DNA of 62,522 nucleotides, filler included, from an uncultured archaeon (lineage in GTDB: Archaea > Iainarchaeota > Iainarchaeia > Iainarchaeales > 1-14-0-10-31-34): assembly GCA_964442255.1 (NCBI GenBank). It is 3 parts of 3 records of this genome, joined end to end, with 100 filler letters (N's around TTAATTAATTAA, not from the genome) between each part and the next. Parts side by side here need not be neighbours in the genome. Positions count along the whole stretch, not along the records: positions 44,741 to 62,522 come from CAYTYC010000025.1; 2 more parts are not named here. One strand, given 5' to 3'. Under the pieces are notes generated by a model. The model worked only from the letters and a program-made list of their open reading frames with translations, was not told the origin of the DNA and searched no databases. Both the position numbers and the translations under genes were made by a program. Below are positions 19,625-54,215 of this stretch, in pieces. How positions within the stretch are numbered: position 1 is the stretch's first letter; every line of letters starts with the position of its first letter.

Positions 19625-19955
19625 TCAATTTCTCCTCCGGGGAACACATTTTTTTTCCAGGGCACGCGCATTGTTACTCCAAAATTAACGGGAGGCGGCT
19701 GATTTCATTCGTTCCTTGGAAAAAATCGCATACAAGCATCTAAACACACTTGTACATTTAATTATTCTTTAATAGAAAATAATATAAATCTTCTGCAATC
19801 GCCGTTTTTTTTTCCGGAATTTTCCGGAAAAAAGCTGGTTTTTCTTTGTTTCTTCCTTTCCAGCGACAAATTTTGCCTTTTTTTTCTTTTCCAGGGCTTT
19901 ACGCTTTTCCGTTAAGCTAAACGCTTTTAAGTAGTTTCCTTCAACTTTTTTGTGC

Positions 19956-20609
19956 ATGGCTGCGGAGAAAGATTTTCAGCTTTTAATGCTTATTGCAAAG
20001 AATTCTGAAAGAGGCTCCTTTACTTCGTCCACCCAAAAAATTTCGTTTTCCCTTGGCTATTCCCAGCAAACAGCCTCCAGAAAGCTCCGTGAACTCGAAA
20101 AAAAAGGATTAATTTCCCGGGAAGCCTCGCCAAAGGGAATGGTTTTGTCCCTCACCCCAAAAGGACGCGAATTACTGGAGTATGTTCACCTCCAGCTTTC
20201 TTCCTTGTTTGAAAAAAGCCCTGCACTGAAAAAACTCTCCGGCACAGTTGAATCTGGTTCGGGTGAAGGCGCTTACTACACTTCCCTTCCCCGGTACTCC
20301 AAGGCATTTAAGGGGCTGCTTGGAGAAGAGGTTTTTCCGGGAACCCTCAACATGCGGGTGAAACTTCCGGAGCTTAACGCTTTTTTGAACAGCCTGAAGC
20401 CGAAAAAAATTCATGCATTCAAAACAAAAACACGTGGCTTTGGCTCAACCGACTGCTTTCAAGTTAAAGTGAATTCACGCATTCCGGGGCTCATGGTTTT
20501 CCCCGAGCGCTCCCACCATCCCCGGGGCGTGGTGGAAATTGTTTCCCCTGTTTTTTTGAGAAAACGGCTTAAGCTTAGGGACGGAAGCAGGGTTTCCTTA
20601 AATTTTTGA
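19956..20609 (+). CDS. ribK: CTP-dependent riboflavin kinase with N-terminal wHTH (RbkR-type)
   Basis: SQQTASRKLRELEKKGLI HTH; GTVESGSGEGAYY, FPGTLN, PERSHH, LRKRLKLRDG. Confidence 0.92.
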   Translation: MAAEKDFQLLMLIAKNSERGSFTSSTQKISFSLGYSQQTASRKLRELEKKGLISREASPKGMVLSLTPKGRELLEYVHLQLSSLFEKSPALKKLSGTVESGSGEGAYYTSLPRYSKAFKGLLGEEVFPGTLNMRVKLPELNAFLNSLKPKKIHAFKTKTRGFGSTDCFQVKVNSRIPGLMVFPERSHHPRGVVEIVSPVFLRKRLKLRDGSRVSLNF

Positions 20610-27971: not shown

Positions 27972-28044
27972 GGGCCCGTGGTCTAGTGGTTAGGACGACA
28001 CCCTTACACGGTGTAGGCCGCCGGTTCGATCCCGGCCGGGCCCA
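27972..28044 (+). tRNA. tRNA-Val(TAC)
   Basis: GGGCCCG/CGGGCCC acceptor stem, ACACC-CTTACAC-GGTGT anticodon arm, GGTTCGATCCC T-arm; no encoded CCA. Confidence 0.97.
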
Positions 28045-28045
28045 C

Positions 28046-28151
28046 TTGCCGGCTGTTCCCGGCAGTGGAATCCCGCCTGCTCGCGGGAATGGAACGTGCC
28101 ATACTTTGTATGGCACTTTCTCCGCATGGAACTTGCTCGCTGCGCTCGCAT
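28046..28151 (+). repeat. tRNA-trailer hairpin unit
   Basis: First 72 nt align ungapped to 31100-31171 with 11 mismatches; three hairpins. Confidence 0.8.
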
Positions 28152-44852: not shown

Positions 44853-45782
44853 TTAAGCCTTAAAGAATTCGGCGGTTTCCCTTAAGCCTTCCTTCAGCCC
44901 GACCCCGGATTTAAAGCCAAGCTCCTGCCCCGCATTGGTTGAATCACCCAAAGTGTCGCGGGGTTCCCCTTTCCGGGCTTCAAGGAATTCCGGGGAAACG
45001 CTTGTTCCAAGGACTGCCTGGATTTCCCCCAGCAGTTCAAGGAGGGAAACGTTTTTTCCGGCGGAAACATTGAAAACATGCGCCCCCCTTTTTTTGTAGG
45101 CCATTGAAAGCAGGTTTGCGTTCACCACGTTTTTAATGTAGGTGAAGTCCCTGGTCTGTTTTCCGTCGCCATAGATTTGCGGTTTTTGATTTCGGAGAAT
45201 TCTGCAAATGAACCTTGGGATTACGGTGGAATACTCTGACTCCGGGTCCTGGCGGGGGCCGAAAACATTGAAGTAACGGAGGCTGACGCTGCCGATTCCA
45301 TACAATTCGTCGTACATTTTAAAGTACTGTTCCCCGACAAGCTTGGTTAAGCCGTAAGGGGAAAGCGGGTGAAGGGAAGAGGATTCCTTTAACGGAAGCT
45401 CTTTTGACAGGCCGTAAACAGAGCTTGAGGAAGCGGAAACAATTTTTTTCACGTCATTTTTTCTTGCGGCCTCCAAAACATTCAGGGTTCCGAGAATGTT
45501 TACTTCATTGTATTCCTTGGGTTTTTCCAGAGACATCTGCACGCTTCGCAGGGCGGCGAGGTGAATAATGCTTTCCGCGCCCTTGCATTCCTTTTCCATC
45601 AGCGCGGAGTCACAAATGTCGCCTTCCACGAACCTGATTTTTTCCTTGCATTGCGAGAGGTGAGCTTTTTTTCCGAAGGAAAGGTCGTCCACCACGGTTA
45701 CTTGAAGCCCTTTTTCAACGAGCGCGTCAACCGTGTGCGAACCAATAAAGCCCGCCCCGCCTGTAACAACAACCCTGGCCAT
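44853..45782 (-). CDS. UDP-hexose 4-epimerase-like SDR (GalE/WbpP family)
   Basis: TGGAGFIGSH, SSSSVYG, YGLTK, LRYFNVFGPRQ, GDGKQTRDF. Confidence 0.92.
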   Translation of the reverse strand: MARVVVTGGAGFIGSHTVDALVEKGLQVTVVDDLSFGKKAHLSQCKEKIRFVEGDICDSALMEKECKGAESIIHLAALRSVQMSLEKPKEYNEVNILGTLNVLEAARKNDVKKIVSASSSSVYGLSKELPLKESSSLHPLSPYGLTKLVGEQYFKMYDELYGIGSVSLRYFNVFGPRQDPESEYSTVIPRFICRILRNQKPQIYGDGKQTRDFTYIKNVVNANLLSMAYKKRGAHVFNVSAGKNVSLLELLGEIQAVLGTSVSPEFLEARKGEPRDTLGDSTNAGQELGFKSGVGLKEGLRETAEFFKA

Positions 45783-45804: not shown

Positions 45805-46671
45805 CTATTTAACCCTTGATTTGAGGTAAGAGAGGAATTGTTCGCGGGTGTCGGGGCGGTGCAACGCGAATTCGGTTATTGCCTTAAGGTAATTCATTTT
45901 GTCGCCGATTGTCAGCCACTGCCCGGGAACCTCGTAAGCAAGAATCCGGTCTCTTTTGTTTAAAGTTCGCAAAGCTTCAGTCAGCTGGATTTCCCTGTCA
46001 GGGGTTTTAGGGGTGCACTCAAGTATTCCAAAAATTTCGGGCTTCAAAATATAGCGGCCCAAAACAGCGAATTCGGAGGGCGCGTCCTCAATCGCCGGCT
46101 TTTCCACGAAATCCAGAATCTCCATTTCATCGCCGTTCCTTTCAAAATCAATTATTCCAAAACCCGGAATCTCTGCCTCCGAAACCTTTTTCACCCCAAC
46201 CACGCTGCGGCCGGTTTTTTCATGCAGGGAAACCATTTCCTTAAGGCAGGGGGTTTCCCCCAACACCAAATCGTCGCCCAACAGGACAGCAAAAGGCTCG
46301 TTCCCTACGTGTTTTTTTGCGCACAAAACCGCGTGCCCGAGGCCGAGCGCCTCCTTTTGCCGGACGTAATGGATGTCCGCAAGGCTTTCAATTTCCTCAA
46401 GGGTTTTAAGTTCAGCGGACTTGTTTTTTTCCCTTAATGCCTTTTCCAGTTCCGGCACCTTGTCAAAGTGGTCTTCAATCGCCCTCTTTCCCCTCCCCGT
46501 TATTATGAGGATGTCCTCAATTCCCGATTCAACGGCTTCCTCCACAATGTACTGGATTGCGGGCCTGTCAACAATGGGAAGCATTTCCTTTGGCATGGCC
46601 TTGGTTGCAGGCAAAAACCTTGTGCCAAGCCCGGCTGCGGGAATAACCGCCCTGGAAATTTTTTTCGCCAT
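45805..46671 (-). CDS. galU: UTP--glucose-1-phosphate uridylyltransferase
   Basis: AVIPAAGLGTRFLPATKAMPKEML, RQKEALGLGHA, FVEKP. Confidence 0.96.
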   Translation of the reverse strand: MAKKISRAVIPAAGLGTRFLPATKAMPKEMLPIVDRPAIQYIVEEAVESGIEDILIITGRGKRAIEDHFDKVPELEKALREKNKSAELKTLEEIESLADIHYVRQKEALGLGHAVLCAKKHVGNEPFAVLLGDDLVLGETPCLKEMVSLHEKTGRSVVGVKKVSEAEIPGFGIIDFERNGDEMEILDFVEKPAIEDAPSEFAVLGRYILKPEIFGILECTPKTPDREIQLTEALRTLNKRDRILAYEVPGQWLTIGDKMNYLKAITEFALHRPDTREQFLSYLKSRVK

Positions 46672-46694
46672 TTTTTAACCGTTTTCTTTTTTCC

Positions 46695-46794
46695 NNNNNN
46701 NNNNNNNNNNNNNNNNNNNNNNNNNNNNNNNNNNNNNNNNNNNNNNNNNNNNNNNNNNNNNNNNNNNNNNNNNNNNNNNNNNNNNNNNNNNNNN
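46695..46794. other. Assembly gap
   Basis: 100 N. Confidence 0.98.
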
Positions 46795-46882
46795 TTTTGA
46801 TTAAACTTTTCCCAAATTCTTTTTTCCTTTTGATTAAACTTTTCCCAAATTCTTTTTTCCTTTTGATTAAACTTTTCCCAAA
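46795..46882. repeat. 33-bp tandem repeat emerging from the gap
   Basis: TTTTGATTAAACTTTTCCCAAATTCTTTTTTCC, about 2.7 copies visible. Confidence 0.88.
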
Positions 46883-46965
46883 AGTTTATTTTGCTCAAGC
46901 CTTTTTTCTAAAAAAGCCTGTTGGCGTACGCCGCCTTTTCCCTTCCTTTTTGATGAAACTTTTTT

Positions 46966-47073
46966 CTAAACTACGGCGGGTTAAAGCCCCCTGAATTTTT
47001 TTTTCCCGCAAACGGCCTGCAAAAACCCTGATTAATCCGCCCATTGAAAAAGGCGGGTTCCCGGAAGGGGTTT
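46966..47073 (+). repeat. ~105-bp dispersed structured element, copy C
   Basis: CTAAACTACGGCGGGTTAAAGCCCCC...CCCGCAAACGGCCTGCAAAAACCCT...CCGCCCATTGAAAAAGGCGGGTTCCCGGAAGGGGTTT. Confidence 0.8.
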
Positions 47074-47113
47074 CTAAAAAGTTTCTTTTGTCCAAACTTT
47101 TTTTAAAAGTTTG

Positions 47114-48382
47114 TTACCAGCAGATTGCGTCATAGTTTTCCGGGCGCCTTTCCCTGGGAACGCCCCTTCCGTCAATCACTATGCGGTTTTTGAAGTCAAT
47201 TTTGCTGAAATGGGGCCAGGCGGTCACAAAGAAAACAATTTCGGATTCATCCACCGCCTTTTGTGCGGAGTCCCTGTAGGAAATTCCGGGGAAAACCTTT
47301 TTCATGTTTTCCTCTGCCTGCGGGTCGGCCGCGACAACCTCCGCGCCCTCCCTTAATAATTCTTTTATTAGGGGGATTGCAGGGCTTTCCCTCACGTCGT
47401 CAGTCCCGGGCTTGAATGCAAGCCCCAAAACCGCGGCCTTTTTTCCCTTCAAAGGGGTTTTCTTTTTTGCAAGCTCAACCAGTTTAAGGGGCTGAAGGGA
47501 ATTCACTTTCAGGGCTGAATCAAGGATTCTGGGCCTGACTCCCAGGGATTCGGCCAAATGCCTTAAGGCCCGAACGTCCTTGGGAAAACAGCTTCCGCCG
47601 AATCCCGCACCGCACTCCAAAAAATGCGGGGAAATCCTGTGGTCAAGGCCCATTCCCTTTCCCACCTCATTTGCGTCAATTCCAAGCTGTTTGCAGATGT
47701 TTCCGATTTCGTTGATGAAAGAAATTTTTGCCGCAAGAAAAGAGTTTGAGGCATACTTAACCATTTCCGCAGTGCCCGGGGAAGTGAAAAGCTTTTCGCA
47801 TTCAAATCCCCGGTAAAGGTCGCGCATTATTTCCCCGGTTTTTTCCTCCAGGGCGCCGATTACAATCCTGTCCGGATTCATGAAATCCCTTAACGCGATT
47901 CCCTCGCGCAAAAACTCAGGGTTCATCGCAACACCGAAATCCTTTCCCGCGATTTTCCCGGATTCTTTTTCCAGCGCGGGCAGCACCTCATTCAGGGTGG
48001 TTCCGGGAACAACCGTGCTTTTCACCACAACAACATGGAAAGGGCTTTTTTCCTTCAGGGCTGAGCCGATTTGGCGGGCAGAGGAAACAACCATTGAGGT
48101 GTCGCACTTTCCTTCCCCGTCGCAGGGCGTTCCCACGCAAATGAACGTAACCCCGGAATTCAGGACCGCGTTCCTTAAATCGGCGGAGGCCTTCAGCTTT
48201 TTTCCGGCAAGTTCCCTGAGTTTTTCCTCCAGGCCTTCCTCAAAAATGGGCGGCCTTTTGGAGTTAATCAGTTCGACTTTTTTTTCATCTATGTCCACGC
48301 ATTCAACGCAATGGCCTTTCGAGGCAAGGCCGACGGCTGTTATCAGCCCCACATAGCCCGCTCCGACAACCGAAACATTCAT
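47114..48382 (-). CDS. ugd: UDP-glucose 6-dehydrogenase
   Basis: GAGYVG, KSTVVPG, NPEFLREG, GFGGSCFPKD, GLAFKPGTDDVRESP. Confidence 0.96.
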   Translation of the reverse strand: MNVSVVGAGYVGLITAVGLASKGHCVECVDIDEKKVELINSKRPPIFEEGLEEKLRELAGKKLKASADLRNAVLNSGVTFICVGTPCDGEGKCDTSMVVSSARQIGSALKEKSPFHVVVVKSTVVPGTTLNEVLPALEKESGKIAGKDFGVAMNPEFLREGIALRDFMNPDRIVIGALEEKTGEIMRDLYRGFECEKLFTSPGTAEMVKYASNSFLAAKISFINEIGNICKQLGIDANEVGKGMGLDHRISPHFLECGAGFGGSCFPKDVRALRHLAESLGVRPRILDSALKVNSLQPLKLVELAKKKTPLKGKKAAVLGLAFKPGTDDVRESPAIPLIKELLREGAEVVAADPQAEENMKKVFPGISYRDSAQKAVDESEIVFFVTAWPHFSKIDFKNRIVIDGRGVPRERRPENYDAICW

Positions 48383-48423
48383 TTAAATACGGAAAACGGG
48401 AAAATGCTTAAATATGTTAACTA

Positions 48424-48440
48424 ATCATATAATGTATGAT
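48424..48440. promoter_or_regulatory. Candidate operator ATCATA-N5-TATGAT
   Basis: 6-bp inverted repeat 5 nt upstream of the RHH fusion gene, within the divergent promoter region. Confidence 0.45.
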
Positions 48441-48445
48441 AAAGT

Positions 48446-49246
48446 ATGCGGGAAAGAGTCACTGTAACGCTTAAAGGCGAACTCCTTGAGCAGGTAGACA
48501 GGCTGGTGGACGGCCTCACGATAAGGAGCAGGAGCCAGGCAATGGAGTACCTGCTTTCAAAGGTTTTGTCTGACTACCGGCTTTCCCGCGCGCTGGTTTT
48601 GGCGGGAGGGCAGAGCAGGGAGTTAAGCAACAAGTTTTTGCGGGAAATAAAGGGAAAGCCCCTTCTCTTCCACACACTGGATTACCTGCACGAATTCAAC
48701 ATATCAAATTTCACCGTTTACCTGGACTTTGGGCACAAAAAAATCAGGAAAGCCTTAAGGGAAAAGGACCTTTCCTACGGAATTTCCTTCCTTGAACACC
48801 CGAAACCCGCGGGAACGGTTGAGCCTCTCCTGAAAATAAGGGGGGAAGTGAAGAACACAATTCTTGTGGCTTACGGGGACACAATCTGCAACCTGGATTT
48901 GAACGGAATGCTTGCGTTCCACAAAAAAAACAAGTTCCCCGCGACAATCGCCCTTACTACCGTAAGCAACCCCAAACAATACGGGGTTGTGATGCTGGAG
49001 GGAAACAAGGTAAAGGAATTTTTGCAGAAGCCCAGAAAAGACACGGGAAGCTTTCTGGTTAACGCGGGCTATTACCTCCTTGAGCCGGAGGCGTTCAGGC
49101 TTATTTCAGGGAAAATGCGGAGCCTGGAAGGGGACTTTTTTCCCAGGCTCGCGGAAAAAGGCCTTCTCGCGGGATACCCTTTCCAGGGGCTTTACATAAA
49201 CGTGAACACGCAGGAAGACCTGGAGAAGGCAAGAAAGCTGTTATAA
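48446..49246 (+). CDS. Ribbon-helix-helix domain fused to a degenerate sugar-phosphate nucleotidyltransferase domain
   Basis: MRERVTVTLKGELLEQVDRLV....RSRSQAMEYLL (CopG/NikR-type RHH); ALVLAGG, GKPLL, YGD, YGVV, VNAGYY; lacks the G.G.RL.P.T...PK motif. Confidence 0.85.
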   Translation: MRERVTVTLKGELLEQVDRLVDGLTIRSRSQAMEYLLSKVLSDYRLSRALVLAGGQSRELSNKFLREIKGKPLLFHTLDYLHEFNISNFTVYLDFGHKKIRKALREKDLSYGISFLEHPKPAGTVEPLLKIRGEVKNTILVAYGDTICNLDLNGMLAFHKKNKFPATIALTTVSNPKQYGVVMLEGNKVKEFLQKPRKDTGSFLVNAGYYLLEPEAFRLISGKMRSLEGDFFPRLAEKGLLAGYPFQGLYINVNTQEDLEKARKLL

Positions 49247-49281: not shown

Positions 49282-49983
49282 ATGGCGGAATTGAAGCAGG
49301 CGGTGATTCTGGCTGGCGGAAAAGGCTCAAGGCTTAGGCCGATGACTTTGGAGACGCCGAAGCCTTTGCTTAAAGTGAAGGGAAAAACTTTGCTGGAATA
49401 CAACATTGAATTGGCGAAAAAAAACGGGCTGACTGAAGTGATTCTTGCCGTGGGGTATCTCGGGGAAAAAATAAGGGAATTCTTCGGGAACGGAAAAAAG
49501 TTCGGCGTAAGCATCACTTACACGCGGGAAGAAAAGCCTTTGGGGACGGGAGGGGCATTACGGCTTTCCTCAGGGCTGCTGGATGAAAGGTTTGCGATGA
49601 TGAACGGCGACGAATTAAAGGAAGTGGATTTCAGGAAAATGCTGGAAGTGCACGAAAAAAACAAGGCAATTGCGACGCTGGCGTTAACGGAAGCGGAAAA
49701 CGCAAAGGATTTGGGGACAGTGGAAATGGAGGGGGAAAAAATAACGGAATTCAGGGAAAAGGAAAGCGAGGGGCCCGCACTGATTAACGCGGGGGCATAC
49801 ATTCTGGAAAAAAAAATCCTTGAGCTGATCCCGGACGGGTTCTGCAGCATTGAAAAAGAAATTTTCCCGAAACTCGCGGAACAAGGAAGGCTTTTTGGCT
49901 GGATTGAAGAAGGGCAGTGGTTTCCCACGGACACGGTTGAAAAAATGGGGAAAGCGGAAAAAGGCTGGAAGGAAAGCGGGTGA
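49282..49983 (+). CDS. Sugar-1-phosphate nucleotidyltransferase (mannose-1-P guanylyltransferase-like)
   Basis: ILAGGKGSRLRPMTLETPKPLL, EEKPLGTGGAL, NGD, INAGAY. Confidence 0.92.
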   Translation: MAELKQAVILAGGKGSRLRPMTLETPKPLLKVKGKTLLEYNIELAKKNGLTEVILAVGYLGEKIREFFGNGKKFGVSITYTREEKPLGTGGALRLSSGLLDERFAMMNGDELKEVDFRKMLEVHEKNKAIATLALTEAENAKDLGTVEMEGEKITEFREKESEGPALINAGAYILEKKILELIPDGFCSIEKEIFPKLAEQGRLFGWIEEGQWFPTDTVEKMGKAEKGWKESG

Positions 49984-50115: not shown

Positions 50116-51075
50116 ATGGTTAGGGCGCTTATCACGGGAGTGAACGGCTTTGTGGGAAGCCATTTAAGCGAATTTTTGCTGGAAAACAGTCTGGCTGAAG
50201 TTTACGGCACTTTCCGCACAAAAAACGAGAACATGGAAAACATAAGGGGAATTGTGAACAAAATAAACCCCATTGAATGCGACATTACAGACTATCACGC
50301 GGTAAGCCAGGCAATTGAAGAGGTTGAGCCGGATTACGTGTTTCATCTGGCCGCGCAGGCGTTTGTGCCCAGCTCATGGTCCGCGCCGGTTGAAACCATG
50401 AACACAAACGTCATGGGCTCACTGAATTTGTTTGAGGCAATCAGGAGAAGCAAATCCGACCCGGTTGTGCAGATTGCGGGAAGCAGTGAAGAGTACGGTT
50501 TGGTTAAGGAAGACGAGGTGCCCATAAAGGAAACAAACCCTTTAAGGCCCTTAAGCCCTTACGGGGTAAGCAAGGTTTCAATGGATTTGCTTGGATTCCA
50601 GTACCACCAAAGCTACGGGGTGAAGATTGTCAGGACGCGGGGATTCAACCACACGGGGCCCAGAAGGGGGGAATCATATGTCACAAGCAACTGGTCAAAG
50701 CAGATAGCGGAAATGGAGAAAGGCGTGAAAGAAAAATCGCTTTTGGTGGGAAACCTGGATTCAGTCCGCGACTTCACGGATGTAAGGGACATGGTCAGGG
50801 GATACTGGCTTGCGGTAAAAAAAGCGGAGCCCGGGGACGTGTACAACATTGCGGCAGGAAAAGGCGTTAAAATGTCCGGGCTGTTGGAAATGCTGAAAGG
50901 GCTTTCAAAAACCGAATTTGCGGTAAAGCCTGACCCAAAAAGAATGAGGCCAAGCGACGTCATGGTCTTGATTGGGGACAGCTCAAAGTTCAGGGAAAAA
51001 ACCGGCTGGAAACCGGAAATAGAATTCAGGAAAACTTTGGAAGACCTGCTGGATTACTGGCGCGAAAGGGTTTAA
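50116..51075 (+). CDS. GDP-mannose 4,6-dehydratase/Rmd-like SDR
   Basis: LITGVNGFVGSHL, HLAAQ, GSSEEYG, PLSPYGVSK, FNHTGPRR, GNLDSVRDF. Confidence 0.9.
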   Translation: MVRALITGVNGFVGSHLSEFLLENSLAEVYGTFRTKNENMENIRGIVNKINPIECDITDYHAVSQAIEEVEPDYVFHLAAQAFVPSSWSAPVETMNTNVMGSLNLFEAIRRSKSDPVVQIAGSSEEYGLVKEDEVPIKETNPLRPLSPYGVSKVSMDLLGFQYHQSYGVKIVRTRGFNHTGPRRGESYVTSNWSKQIAEMEKGVKEKSLLVGNLDSVRDFTDVRDMVRGYWLAVKKAEPGDVYNIAAGKGVKMSGLLEMLKGLSKTEFAVKPDPKRMRPSDVMVLIGDSSKFREKTGWKPEIEFRKTLEDLLDYWRERV

Positions 51076-53550: not shown

Positions 53551-53595
53551 AACACAGGCATATGTTTAAATACACGTACATACACACAATTGACC

Positions 53596-53829
53596 ATGGC
53601 TACAAAAACGCTTTCCATCACTGAAGAGGCATACAATAGGCTCAATTCCAGAAAGAAAGAGGGGGAAAGCTTTACTGATGTGATAAAAAGGCTGACCAAA
53701 AGGGAGAGCCTGACAAAGTTTGCCGGAATATTGCCGGAAAGGGAAGCGAACGAACTGGAGAAAAACATTAGAAAAAGCAGGACTGATTCAAGGAAGAGGA
53801 CACAAAAAATAAAGGGAATGCTTTCATGA
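53596..53829 (+). CDS. vapB: VapB-type antitoxin (DUF217-like)
   Basis: MATKTLSITEEAYNRL...KKEGESFTDVIKRL; ATGA coupling to a PIN-domain gene. Confidence 0.88.
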   Translation: MATKTLSITEEAYNRLNSRKKEGESFTDVIKRLTKRESLTKFAGILPEREANELEKNIRKSRTDSRKRTQKIKGMLS

Positions 53830-54215
53830 TTTTAGACACCGTCTTTTTAATTGACCTGTTAAAGGGCAACAAAGATGCGGTTGCCAAAGCCAAGGAACTG
53901 GAAAAAAACAATGAACCGCTTTCAACAACCTCTGTTTCAGTGTTTGAAATCTGGCAGGGGCTTCCGGCAAAGCCCATGGTAACGCAAATGGAAAACGTGC
54001 TTGAATTGTTTAAATCCCTTAACGTATTTGAACTTGACTTTGATGCGGCACTTGAGGGGGGAGAAATTCAGCGAACCCTGAAAATAAAAGGGGAAATTAT
54101 TGATGCAGAGGATGCAATGATTGCCGGAATCGCCAGAAGCCAAGGAGAGAAAGTTTTGACGAGAAATCTAAAGCATTTTAAGAGAATAAACAACATAGAA
54201 GTTGAAAGCTACTGA
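53826..54215 (+). CDS. vapC: VapC PIN-domain toxin
   Basis: ILDTVFLIDL, SVFEI, DAMIAGIA, LTRNLKHF. Confidence 0.93.
   Translation: MILDTVFLIDLLKGNKDAVAKAKELEKNNEPLSTTSVSVFEIWQGLPAKPMVTQMENVLELFKSLNVFELDFDAALEGGEIQRTLKIKGEIIDAEDAMIAGIARSQGEKVLTRNLKHFKRINNIEVESY

Follow-up and report, generated by a model that had tools for sequence, protein, structure and literature searches.

A ribbon-helix-helix protein with a decayed nucleotidyltransferase domain and a predicted operator: a candidate autorepressor of Iainarchaeota

What role can be proposed for a nucleotidyltransferase that carries a ribbon-helix-helix (RHH) head and a decayed signature loop? Such a protein is encoded in the stretch of DNA analysed here, 62,522 nucleotides in all from an uncultured archaeon of the Iainarchaeota (assembly GCA_964442255.1; hereafter the window), by an open reading frame (ORF) of 266 codons plus stop on the + strand (48446..49246), described on the basis of ORF reading, Pfam, homologue search and an AlphaFold2 model. 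On balance, we favour the reading that this gene encodes a one-component autorepressor with an enzyme-derived sensor, for which we infer DNA binding, repression, oligomeric state, ligand and loss of catalysis. The initial annotation had proposed an enzyme-derived sensor that regulates genes for glycosylation precursors; the RHH, the decayed loop, the intact paralogue, the neighbouring ugd and a predicted operator speak for this, while the ligand, the catalytic loss and the control of ugd and galU are still inferred. It had placed the start at 48383, which is the first base of the intergenic spacer; the ORF begins at 48446.

A NikR-type head and its predicted operator

Judged by its sequence, the N-terminus of the protein is an RHH of the NikR type (residues 1-46; 48446..48583, + strand), in which the strand RERVTVTL is followed by helices at residues 11-20 and 29-41. 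A profile of 16 aligned N-termini (that of the window and 15 from the loci described below), searched against all PDB sequences, matches E. coli NikR at E 8.5e-7 over positions 2-44, with an identical strand RVTIT, and P. horikoshii NikR at E 0.03; these two proteins are its sole PDB matches at E <= 10. Scanned singly, 52 of 119 RHH-bearing family members, which we chose for alignment from 269 proteins, match Pfam RHH_1 at E <= 0.01. Across the 119, S30 is invariant, D18, D22, R29, A32 and E34 are at least 90% conserved, and the strand residues R4, T6 and T8 show little variation. An AlphaFold2 model of the whole protein, built on the 119-row alignment (mean predicted local distance difference test score (pLDDT) 95.2, predicted template modelling score 0.88), shows an extended stretch over residues 1-10, two helices (11-20 and 29-41) and, from residue 47 onwards, the nucleotidyltransferase fold. 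The CopG/NikR-like RHH of the initial annotation is thereby borne out, through the NikR profile match, the RHH_1 matches in the family and the strand-helix-helix model; structure prediction, named there as a check on the N-terminus, yields an extended strand and two helices, as an RHH would lead one to expect. All RHH models are monomers, which cannot display the paired ribbon. When the domain was modelled in isolation (pLDDT 86.3), its three top Foldseek matches were all E. coli NikR chains, at E 0.26-0.32, over 43 and 40 columns, the root-mean-square deviation (rmsd) being 2.4-2.5; as these matches are weak, the case for the RHH rests mainly on sequence.

Just ahead of the gene, the inverted repeat ATCATA-TAATG-TATGAT (48424..48440; ATCATA at 48424-48429, TATGAT at 48435-48440) ends 5 nt before the ATG. 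Its half-sites, TCATA (48425-48429) and TATGA (48435-48439), lie 10 bp apart, centre to centre, and a candidate third half-site, TATGC, follows 10 bp further on (48445..48449, + strand) and holds the ATG (48446-48448). A TATA-like element, TTAAATAT (48408..48415), is found at the same fixed distance to the operator as in relatives. The pattern TCATA-N5-TATGA has a single match in the 62,522 bases, the expectation from shuffles being 0.01, and no second site appears in the window when up to one mismatch is allowed. The palindrome that the initial annotation had pointed out before the start is thus present and unique in the window, and the motif search upstream of homologues that it had called for finds the core near the orthologue in 26 of 28 sources.

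The scan behind this count returned 43 loci, including 26 Iainarchaeota-type orthologues (47-61% identity), one locus labelled Nanoarchaeota and one Micrarchaeota; the 28 sources are the window and 27 loci, L022 being dropped because its sequence starts inside the gene. Exact CATA-N5-TATG stands within 100 nt upstream of the orthologue in 22 of the 28, and a version with one mismatch in four (L003, L007, L015, L019). The motif is at -636 in L014 and was not found upstream in L026, where TCATAC direct repeats occur instead. The ~376 kb scanned contain five other exact CATA-N5-TATG, and five more before second RHH-fused paralogues. Anchored on the motif, 27 upstream regions give a consensus of an A-rich stretch, TTTaAAtA, about 10 nt, and TCATA.AtaGTATGA.aaagTATGA, in which half-sites succeed one another at exactly 10 bp and the TATA centre lies ~26-27 nt before the right half-site. 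As the centre of the archaeal TATA box lies ~26-27 nt upstream of the transcription start, the transcript is expected to start inside the operator; known archaeal repressors hinder polymerase recruitment. The palindrome is thus probably a conserved operator over the promoter, that is, a predicted site. In most loci the start codon falls within the third half-site; of the loci that start elsewhere, five (L001, L002, L016, L018, L019) have a degenerate third half-site and four (L004, L009, L014, L021) a preserved one.

In L014 (5365-6000), with the operator 636 nt before the match, there appears to be an insertion between operator and gene, and in L004 (5930-6010) the first codons of the gene recur, briefly and out of frame (ATG AAT AGA GGC AGG GGC ... 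stop), between the operator and the real start. A fourth half-site abutting the TATA box was considered and rejected as too degenerate, TATGA being present in 3 of 27 sources and the window having TGTTA; by our own tally, pentamers within one mismatch of TATGA occupy this place in 22 of the 27. Also rejected was a match to CATA-N5-TATG in the hairpin GTGCCATAC-TTT-GTATGGCAC (~28097-28117), which is no promoter site, with tRNA-like sequence ahead and G+C flanks. This hairpin has a perfect 9-bp stem ~55 nt behind the tRNA-like sequence (~27980-28045), and its motif match is due to chance in the loop-proximal bases.

What would bind the predicted operator? Its half-site GTATGA is the published NikR half-site, the E. 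coli site being given as GTATGA-N16-TCATAC (PMC7055735) and the enterobacterial consensus as GTATGAT-N13/14-ATCATAC (PMC545781). That both the strand RVTIT and the half-site are NikR-like is our strongest single argument that the protein would bind this site. The base contacts of NikR are made by Arg3, Thr5 and Thr7. Whole-genome scans of five relatives (0.9-1.5 Mb) found the two-half-site pattern 21 times, versus once for a backwards control, and TCATA-N4-GTATGA-N5-TATG with at most one mismatch seven times, versus none. All seven matches abut the RHH-coding sequence of RHH-nucleotidyltransferase genes, and in these genomes the three-half-site operator was found at such genes only. As the RHH profile, too, finds RHH-nucleotidyltransferase genes only (2, 2, 2, 1 and 1 in the five genomes), no other NikR-like protein encoded in these possibly incomplete genomes would compete for the site.

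A metagenome scan seeded with loop-intact RHH-fused members gave 80 loci, six of them set aside because their upstream sequence fell short of 120 nt. In the 120 nt upstream of 58 RHH-bearing loci, TATGA/TCATA is present at least once in 43 and at least twice in 26, with a pair exactly 10 bp apart in 18; the corresponding figures are 9, 0 and 0 in an equal-sized in-gene control at the same loci, and 3, 0 and 0 upstream of 16 RHH-less relatives. Many metagenome loci have direct repeats, TCATAC-N4-TCATAC, upstream of a TATA-like box or over a bacterial -10-like element, layouts which argue that the half-site is a family trait and that the promoter geometry varies. With T, S or N at strand residue 8, the base before TATGA is G in 19/20 and 6/6 cases versus A in 4/5, respectively; we take this co-variation as a lead only, because the pattern follows clades.

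Extra TCATA-N5-TATGA sites, mostly A+T-rich (TTCATAAAAATTATGAA), occur in the relatives' genomes G001-G003 (L044, L050, L056, L058, L045, L053, L046, L054, L057). They are intergenic beside the genes for GAPDH and glutamate dehydrogenase (two genomes each), fructose-1,6-bisphosphatase, transketolase and pyruvate phosphate dikinase and, in the form TCATACTTTGTATGA, beside nadA in two genomes. Similar to the operator that precedes the loop-intact RHH-fused paralogue, they are most frequent in the three genomes that have this paralogue (2, 6 and 5, versus 0 and 2) and are not uniform in position relative to TATA-like boxes. They may constitute a wider central-carbon regulon or be the site of another factor.

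Could the palindrome be ordinary promoter or start-codon context, and the N-terminus no working DNA-binding domain? The motif is A+T-rich and located in the promoter, and the window's own Pfam RHH score is sub-threshold. However, the motif is unique in the window where 0.01 is expected, its register is conserved in 26 of the 28 sources, it is genome-wide specific to RHH-nucleotidyltransferase genes, its half-site is identical to that of NikR, an RHH protein with the same strand sequence, and no other part of the protein is as well conserved as the RHH; we consider this explanation highly improbable.

A decayed nucleotidyltransferase domain as putative sensor

The remainder of the protein, residues 47-266 (48584..49243, + strand), is a nucleotidyltransferase domain resembling GDP-mannose pyrophosphorylase. 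Pfam NTP_transferase matches residues 52-239 at E 6e-18, and the Pfam scan lists NTP_transferase, NTP_transf_3 and RHH_1 alone. The nearest solved structures are those of human GMPPB and Arabidopsis VTC1 (phmmer E 7e-21 for 7d72_K and 2.5e-18), and a family profile matches these solved relatives at E 9.2e-51. Foldseek aligns the model to GMPPB-type structures at E 1.1e-20 to 3.2e-22 (template modelling score 0.74 at E 3.2e-22), and superposition on GMPPB 7d72_K by VIA gives Z 28.7 and an rmsd of 1.7 over 219 residues within model range 47-266. In this fold the pyrophosphate or signature loop has decayed (residues 54-65, GGQSRELSNKFL; 48605..48640, + strand): it is six residues shorter than in GMPPB, the segment at residues 52-65 reads LAGGQSRELSNKFL, and its GGQSRELS departs from the signature GGxGTRLRP. 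The sister gene 36 nt downstream (49282..49983, + strand; 233 aa), which the initial annotation had singled out as the intact paralogue, does carry the canonical loop LAGGKGSRLRPMTLETPKPLL (GGKGSRLRP) and has neither an RHH nor any other N-terminal extension; its top NCBIfam match is mannose-1-phosphate guanylyltransferase, under that family's cut-off.

Is the loop an oddity of this one sequence? Among 108 orthologues (P0001-P0109 limited to 255-290 aa, which dropped one; 43-100% identity), it is the least conserved stretch, with a top-residue frequency of 0.35 at residues 56-62 versus 0.77 in the RHH and 0.63 in the rest of the domain; it varies in length from 4 to 16 residues and has no conserved Arg. 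The erosion described in the initial annotation is thus a property of the orthologues at large, in which a GMPPB-like fold goes with a short and unconserved loop. In VTC1, the pyrophosphate contacts are given as Gly9, Thr12, Arg13 and Lys23, the mannose contacts as Asn173 and Gly146, the guanine contacts as residue 80 and Gly85, and the catalytically critical residues as Asp111, Glu195-Lys196 and Asp219 (PMC9168903). We transferred the VTC1 residues to the window protein through printed alignments and counted them over the 108 orthologues. Thr12 and Arg13 fall in loop residues 56-62 and have no conserved counterpart; residue 80 corresponds to position 118 (G in 47, S in 23, L in 12, others in the rest), Asn109 to position 143 (Tyr in 93/108), Lys196 to position 229 (K 55, R 19, others 34; Gly in the window), Trp217 to position 250 (Y 86, W 22) and Asp219 to position 252, which is Asn in 108/108. 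Lys23 corresponds to position 63 (K or R in 107/108), Asp111 to position 145 (D in 107/108), Tyr145 and Gly146 to positions 179 and 180 (Y 89 and F 16; G in 108/108), Glu162 to position 194 (E 66, Q 41), Lys163 to position 195 (K in 108/108), Asn173 to position 206 (N 57, S 51) and Glu195 to position 228 (E in 107/108); the pocket residue G123 is kept in 108/108. These counts argue that the side of the pocket for the nucleotide triphosphate and the base has decayed, and that the sugar-phosphate side has been held.

This pattern bears on whether the fold serves as an oligomerisation scaffold only, in a constitutive autorepressor that senses no ligand. The base-reading and pyrophosphate-binding residues are unconserved, as such a role would allow, but a scaffold would not need D145, G180, K195, E228 and N252, which are held across the 108 orthologues, and we regard the scaffold explanation as improbable.

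Under the reading that we favour, an autorepressor with an enzyme-derived sensor, two N-terminal domains would pair into a NikR-type RHH dimer, whose beta-ribbon would read a GTATGA half-site through R4, T6 and T8. Two, perhaps three, dimers would occupy half-sites 10 bp apart, that is, on one face of the DNA (TCATA-N5-TATGA, then TATGC), in an array that, from ~10 bp downstream of the TATA box onwards, extends over the predicted start of transcription; once occupied, it should keep RNA polymerase from being recruited and so repress the unit of the regulator itself. The intact nucleotidyltransferase just downstream would probably be repressed together with the regulator. The divergent unit of ugd, galU and a short-chain dehydrogenase/reductase (SDR) gene apparently uses the same TATA region and may be influenced too; between this region and the first codon of ugd there are ~30 nt in the window and, in most loci, 30-56 nt, so that one TATA element may serve both divergent units. 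The C-terminal domain, presumably a duplicated enzyme of the GDP-mannose pyrophosphorylase type that lost the pyrophosphate loop and kept the sugar-phosphate side of its pocket, would be the sensor, most likely for a product or substrate of the sister enzyme. That the ligand is of the GDP-mannose type and acts as co-repressor is guessed from the ancestry and the neighbouring genes. This pseudoenzyme domain would also hold the RHH dimers together, and the ligand would set DNA affinity or cooperativity through it.

Several observations weigh against this scenario or parts of it. The window protein's own match to Pfam RHH_1 (E 0.0037, residues 4-37) scores 17.6 bits with a cut-off of 20.5 bits, and a Foldseek search with the isolated RHH model gave nothing at E <= 0.001. 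The third half-site may in part be start-codon context, and a weak TATA-like run lies in the 36-nt spacer before the 49282 ORF, whose co-transcription with the regulator is presumed. In the loop, GGQSR is readable as a G-x-G-S/T-R shorter by one residue, through which the protein may retain some phosphate contact. Asn in place of the second acidic Asp is no proof of inactivity, because GlmU has Asn at the second metal-binding acidic position. Finally, the guess of a GDP-mannose ligand is weakened because the guanine-reading position (VTC1 residue 80) is variable.

Family, duplication history and known systems

How widespread is such a protein? The initial annotation had treated it as a lone oddity, a picture that proves too narrow, as it belongs to a large family which includes members with an intact catalytic loop. 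Of 1,952 candidates in a word-indexed search, 159 proteins reached E <= 1e-3; the relatives P0002-P0109 share 43-64% identity over 93-100% of the query, their named sources are Diapherotrites/Iainarchaeota, Aenigmarchaeota and unclassified archaea, and there they are called 'NDP-sugar pyrophosphorylase family protein' (NDP, nucleoside diphosphate) or nucleotidyltransferase family protein. When 1.84 billion cluster representatives were searched exhaustively, 12,660 matched at E <= 1e-3, which is the nucleotidyltransferase superfamily, and 87 at E <= 1e-30. In a protein atlas, the homologue P0048 fell into clusters at family level only. A survey of domain architecture, which had been suggested as a check, shows the RHH region to be present in 127 of the 150 best 50%-identity cluster representatives, which align from query residue 1-7. 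Among the 119 aligned RHH-bearing members, 13 have the strict loop G-x-G-[TSEKA]-[RK]-[LMFI] and about ten further ones are near-canonical (G-x-G-x-x-[LM]-R-P), suggesting that selection in the family acts more on the DNA-binding head than on the catalytic loop.

In five loci (L005, L007, L010, L012, L015) an RHH is also fused to the downstream paralogue (281-283 aa), whose GGKGTRL[KR]P loop is intact and which has its own TCATA-N5-TATGA-N5-TATGA, the ATG lying inside the third repeat. A maximum-likelihood tree (IQ-TREE) of 60 nucleotidyltransferase domains, midpoint-rooted for drawing only, places the decayed orthologues in one clade of 23 Iainarchaeota rows (support 99/99, stem 0.6) and the intact paralogues in a separate clade of 20 rows (98/86), in which the five RHH-fused forms are sister to 15 RHH-less ones (100/98), the window's paralogue among the latter. 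In the tree, the intact-paralogue clade is surrounded by RHH-fused forms with an intact loop from other DPANN lineages. In the simplest reading, duplication of an RHH-fused enzyme preceded the split of the lineages; in one copy the RHH stayed and the loop was lost, whereas the other retained the loop and, in most lineages, shed the RHH, the order of events depending on the root. The intact paralogue is present in 20 of 28 loci and in the window; the decayed and intact genes are adjacent in the window and eight loci, and 1-3.5 kb apart in several loci.

Do the decayed proteins still make an NDP-sugar, through a non-canonical loop, and repress their own promoter as well? Such a bifunctional pattern, as in BirA, NadR and PutA, is probably what the loop-intact RHH-fused relatives follow: RHH-fused members with intact GGKGTRLRP exist (13/119 by the strict pattern and about ten near-canonical), and the second paralogues of the five loci named above are loop-intact with their own operators. 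In the window protein and its orthologues, D145, K195 and K/R63 are kept, and the window's loop has an S-R pair. However, a loop of 4-16 residues with no conserved Arg in 108 orthologues is hard to square with a catalytic loop, the equivalents of N109, K196 and D219 are replaced, and 20 of 28 loci plus the window retain an intact paralogue, as expected if catalysis has passed to it. We consider bifunctionality unlikely for the decayed clade.

The decayed copy could also be a regulatory subunit in the first place, binding and tuning the catalytic paralogue in the manner of GMPPA, with DNA binding reporting free versus enzyme-bound regulator. In GMPPA/GMPPB and KJC/VTC1, an inactive paralogue is described as forming a complex with an active one (PMC9168903), the topologies of the two clades match, which fits long co-inheritance, and the two genes are adjacent in the window and eight loci. 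The contacts between GMPPA and GMPPB, however, are reported to run mainly via the C-terminal beta-helix domain (PMC9168903), which is absent from the 266-aa protein, and 1-3.5 kb separates the two genes in several loci; we give this explanation a low probability, too.

How does a sensor-autorepressor of the kind we favour relate to known systems? With NikR (E. coli 1q5v/2hzv, P. horikoshii 2bj1) it shares the N-terminal RHH with strand RVTIT and an N-R-S-x-A helix cap, the GTATGA/TCATAC half-site, and the layout in which a ligand-binding C-terminal body carries an RHH head. The core of NikR, which binds metal, is described as a tetramer with two RHH dimers on it (PMC7055735). Here, in contrast, the C-terminal domain is a nucleotidyltransferase, with no NikR_C in the Pfam scan, the half-sites are everted and 10 bp apart (TCATA-N5-TATGA versus GTATGA-N16-TCATAC), and the ligand is presumably a sugar derivative rather than a metal. 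With GMPPB, VTC1 and small nucleotidyltransferases of the ManC/HddC type the protein shares fold and sequence, and it keeps the counterparts of Lys23, Asp111, Tyr145/Gly146, Lys163, Asn173 and Glu195; it differs from GMPPB and VTC1 in the decayed GGxGTRLRP loop, in the replacement of the Asn109, Lys196, Trp217 and Asp219 counterparts, in the lack of a C-terminal beta-helix domain and in the added RHH. For a hexapeptide-repeat domain there is no Pfam match in the window protein, and in the model nothing follows the nucleotidyltransferase fold, which reaches to residue 266.

GMPPA, described as a catalytically inactive paralogue of GMPPB (PMC9168903) that binds GDP-mannose and regulates GMPPB (PMC11228364), offers the nearest functional precedent for the proposed sensor part. 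As with GMPPA and KONJAC, a duplicated GMPP-type fold stands beside a presumably active paralogue and would serve regulation, its own catalytic activity presumably lost; whereas GMPPA acts allosterically in an enzyme complex via the beta-helix domain, the protein described here would act on transcription via a DNA-binding domain. Enzyme-linked transcription regulators are known in PutA (which has an RHH head), BirA, NadR and archaeal RbkR. In these, too, a DNA-binding domain is fused to an enzyme or enzyme-derived domain of the controlled pathway, a design that the loop-intact RHH-fused relatives fit closely; the enzyme fold and pathway are different, and in the window's clade the enzyme part looks non-catalytic. 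The protein belongs to neither the NikR nor the GMPPA family, but to the nucleotidyltransferase superfamily by fold, without the signature loop. No description of the pairing of RHH and nucleotidyltransferase was found in the full-text literature, a search in which subscription journals and supplementary files were not covered.

Going further, it is conceivable, if doubtful as a whole, that RHH-nucleotidyltransferases form a widespread, unrecognised class of one-component regulators in genome-reduced DPANN archaea and bacteria of the candidate phyla radiation, a family showing all stages from enzyme to sensor, in which the decayed copy, beside a TATA element common to the two divergent units and with a GDP-mannose-type co-repressor, steers transcription towards one of two branches, that for GDP-sugars (its own unit) or that for UDP-sugars (the ugd-galU-SDR unit). 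The stages, equally tentative, would be a bifunctional enzyme-repressor, its duplication, and a dedicated catalyst shedding the RHH beside a pseudoenzyme sensor. If this were so, the decayed copy would be the main control point of the supply of surface-glycan precursors. Cell-surface glycans are central to the attachment of episymbionts to their hosts, which makes control of that supply of biological interest. To our knowledge, few regulators are recognisable in either group, and we know of none studied at the bench. Were the favoured reading true, a common enzyme annotation would be wrong in function, and a regulator with a predictable operator would become usable in vitro for organisms that cannot be grown alone. 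The family provides a clean natural series for an enzyme becoming a pseudoenzyme sensor, and a NikR-type RHH that keeps one DNA half-site while spacing, ligand domain and host domain of life change.

Locus and neighbouring genes

A 63-nt intergenic spacer separates the ORF from ugd, the gene for UDP-glucose 6-dehydrogenase (47114..48382, - strand), which scores above the NCBIfam cut-off for the nucleotide-sugar dehydrogenase subfamily and is divergent, as initially annotated. Also as stated there, the gene is followed by a nucleotidyltransferase gene, the intact paralogue, and then by one for an SDR resembling NDP-sugar 4,6-dehydratases (50116..51075, + strand; top NCBIfam match gmd, below cut-off). 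Behind ugd, on the other side of a gap of 100 N (46695-46794), lie galU (45805..46671, - strand), which passes the TIGR01099 cut-off, and an SDR gene of the NAD-dependent sugar epimerase/dehydratase family (44853..45782, - strand); both SDRs are under every equivalog cut-off of NCBIfam. Among the relatives, ugd is divergently upstream in 24 loci (L001-L012, L014-L021, L023-L025, L042); L013 and L022 are too short upstream for the filter used, and L026 and L027 are without a divergent ugd. The relatives' loci have galU-like and SDR epimerase/dehydratase genes behind ugd and, downstream, the intact paralogue, the 4,6-dehydratase-like SDR gene, apt and mtnP.

A public contig runs over the N gap from 46683 to 46817, with 30 letters on its shorter side where a bridge needs 31. 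As it falls short of this threshold, the linkage of galU to ugd in the window rests on the synteny of relatives, where direct adjacency of ugd and galU in six loci (L005, L007, L008, L010, L012, L015) supports it. Three copies of a 33-bp unit (similar to TTGATTAAACTTTTCCCAAATTCTTTTTTCC) stand straight after the gap, in the repeat stretches 46795-46890 and 46966-47076, where public-contig depth is 34-78 versus 7.6-7.9 in the flanks; this multicopy repeat probably broke the assembly between galU and ugd.

Downstream of mtnP, two ORFs of 79 and 129 aa with a 4-nt overlap (53590-54215), read from the ORF list, resemble a VapB-type antitoxin and a PIN-domain VapC toxin; the 79-aa ORF gives no match to the NikR-like RHH profile. 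At 19950-20609 (+ strand), the ORF of 219 aa that the initial annotation had called an RbkR-type regulator has, by reading of its sequence, a winged-helix-like N-terminus and a C-terminal part resembling CTP-dependent riboflavin kinase.

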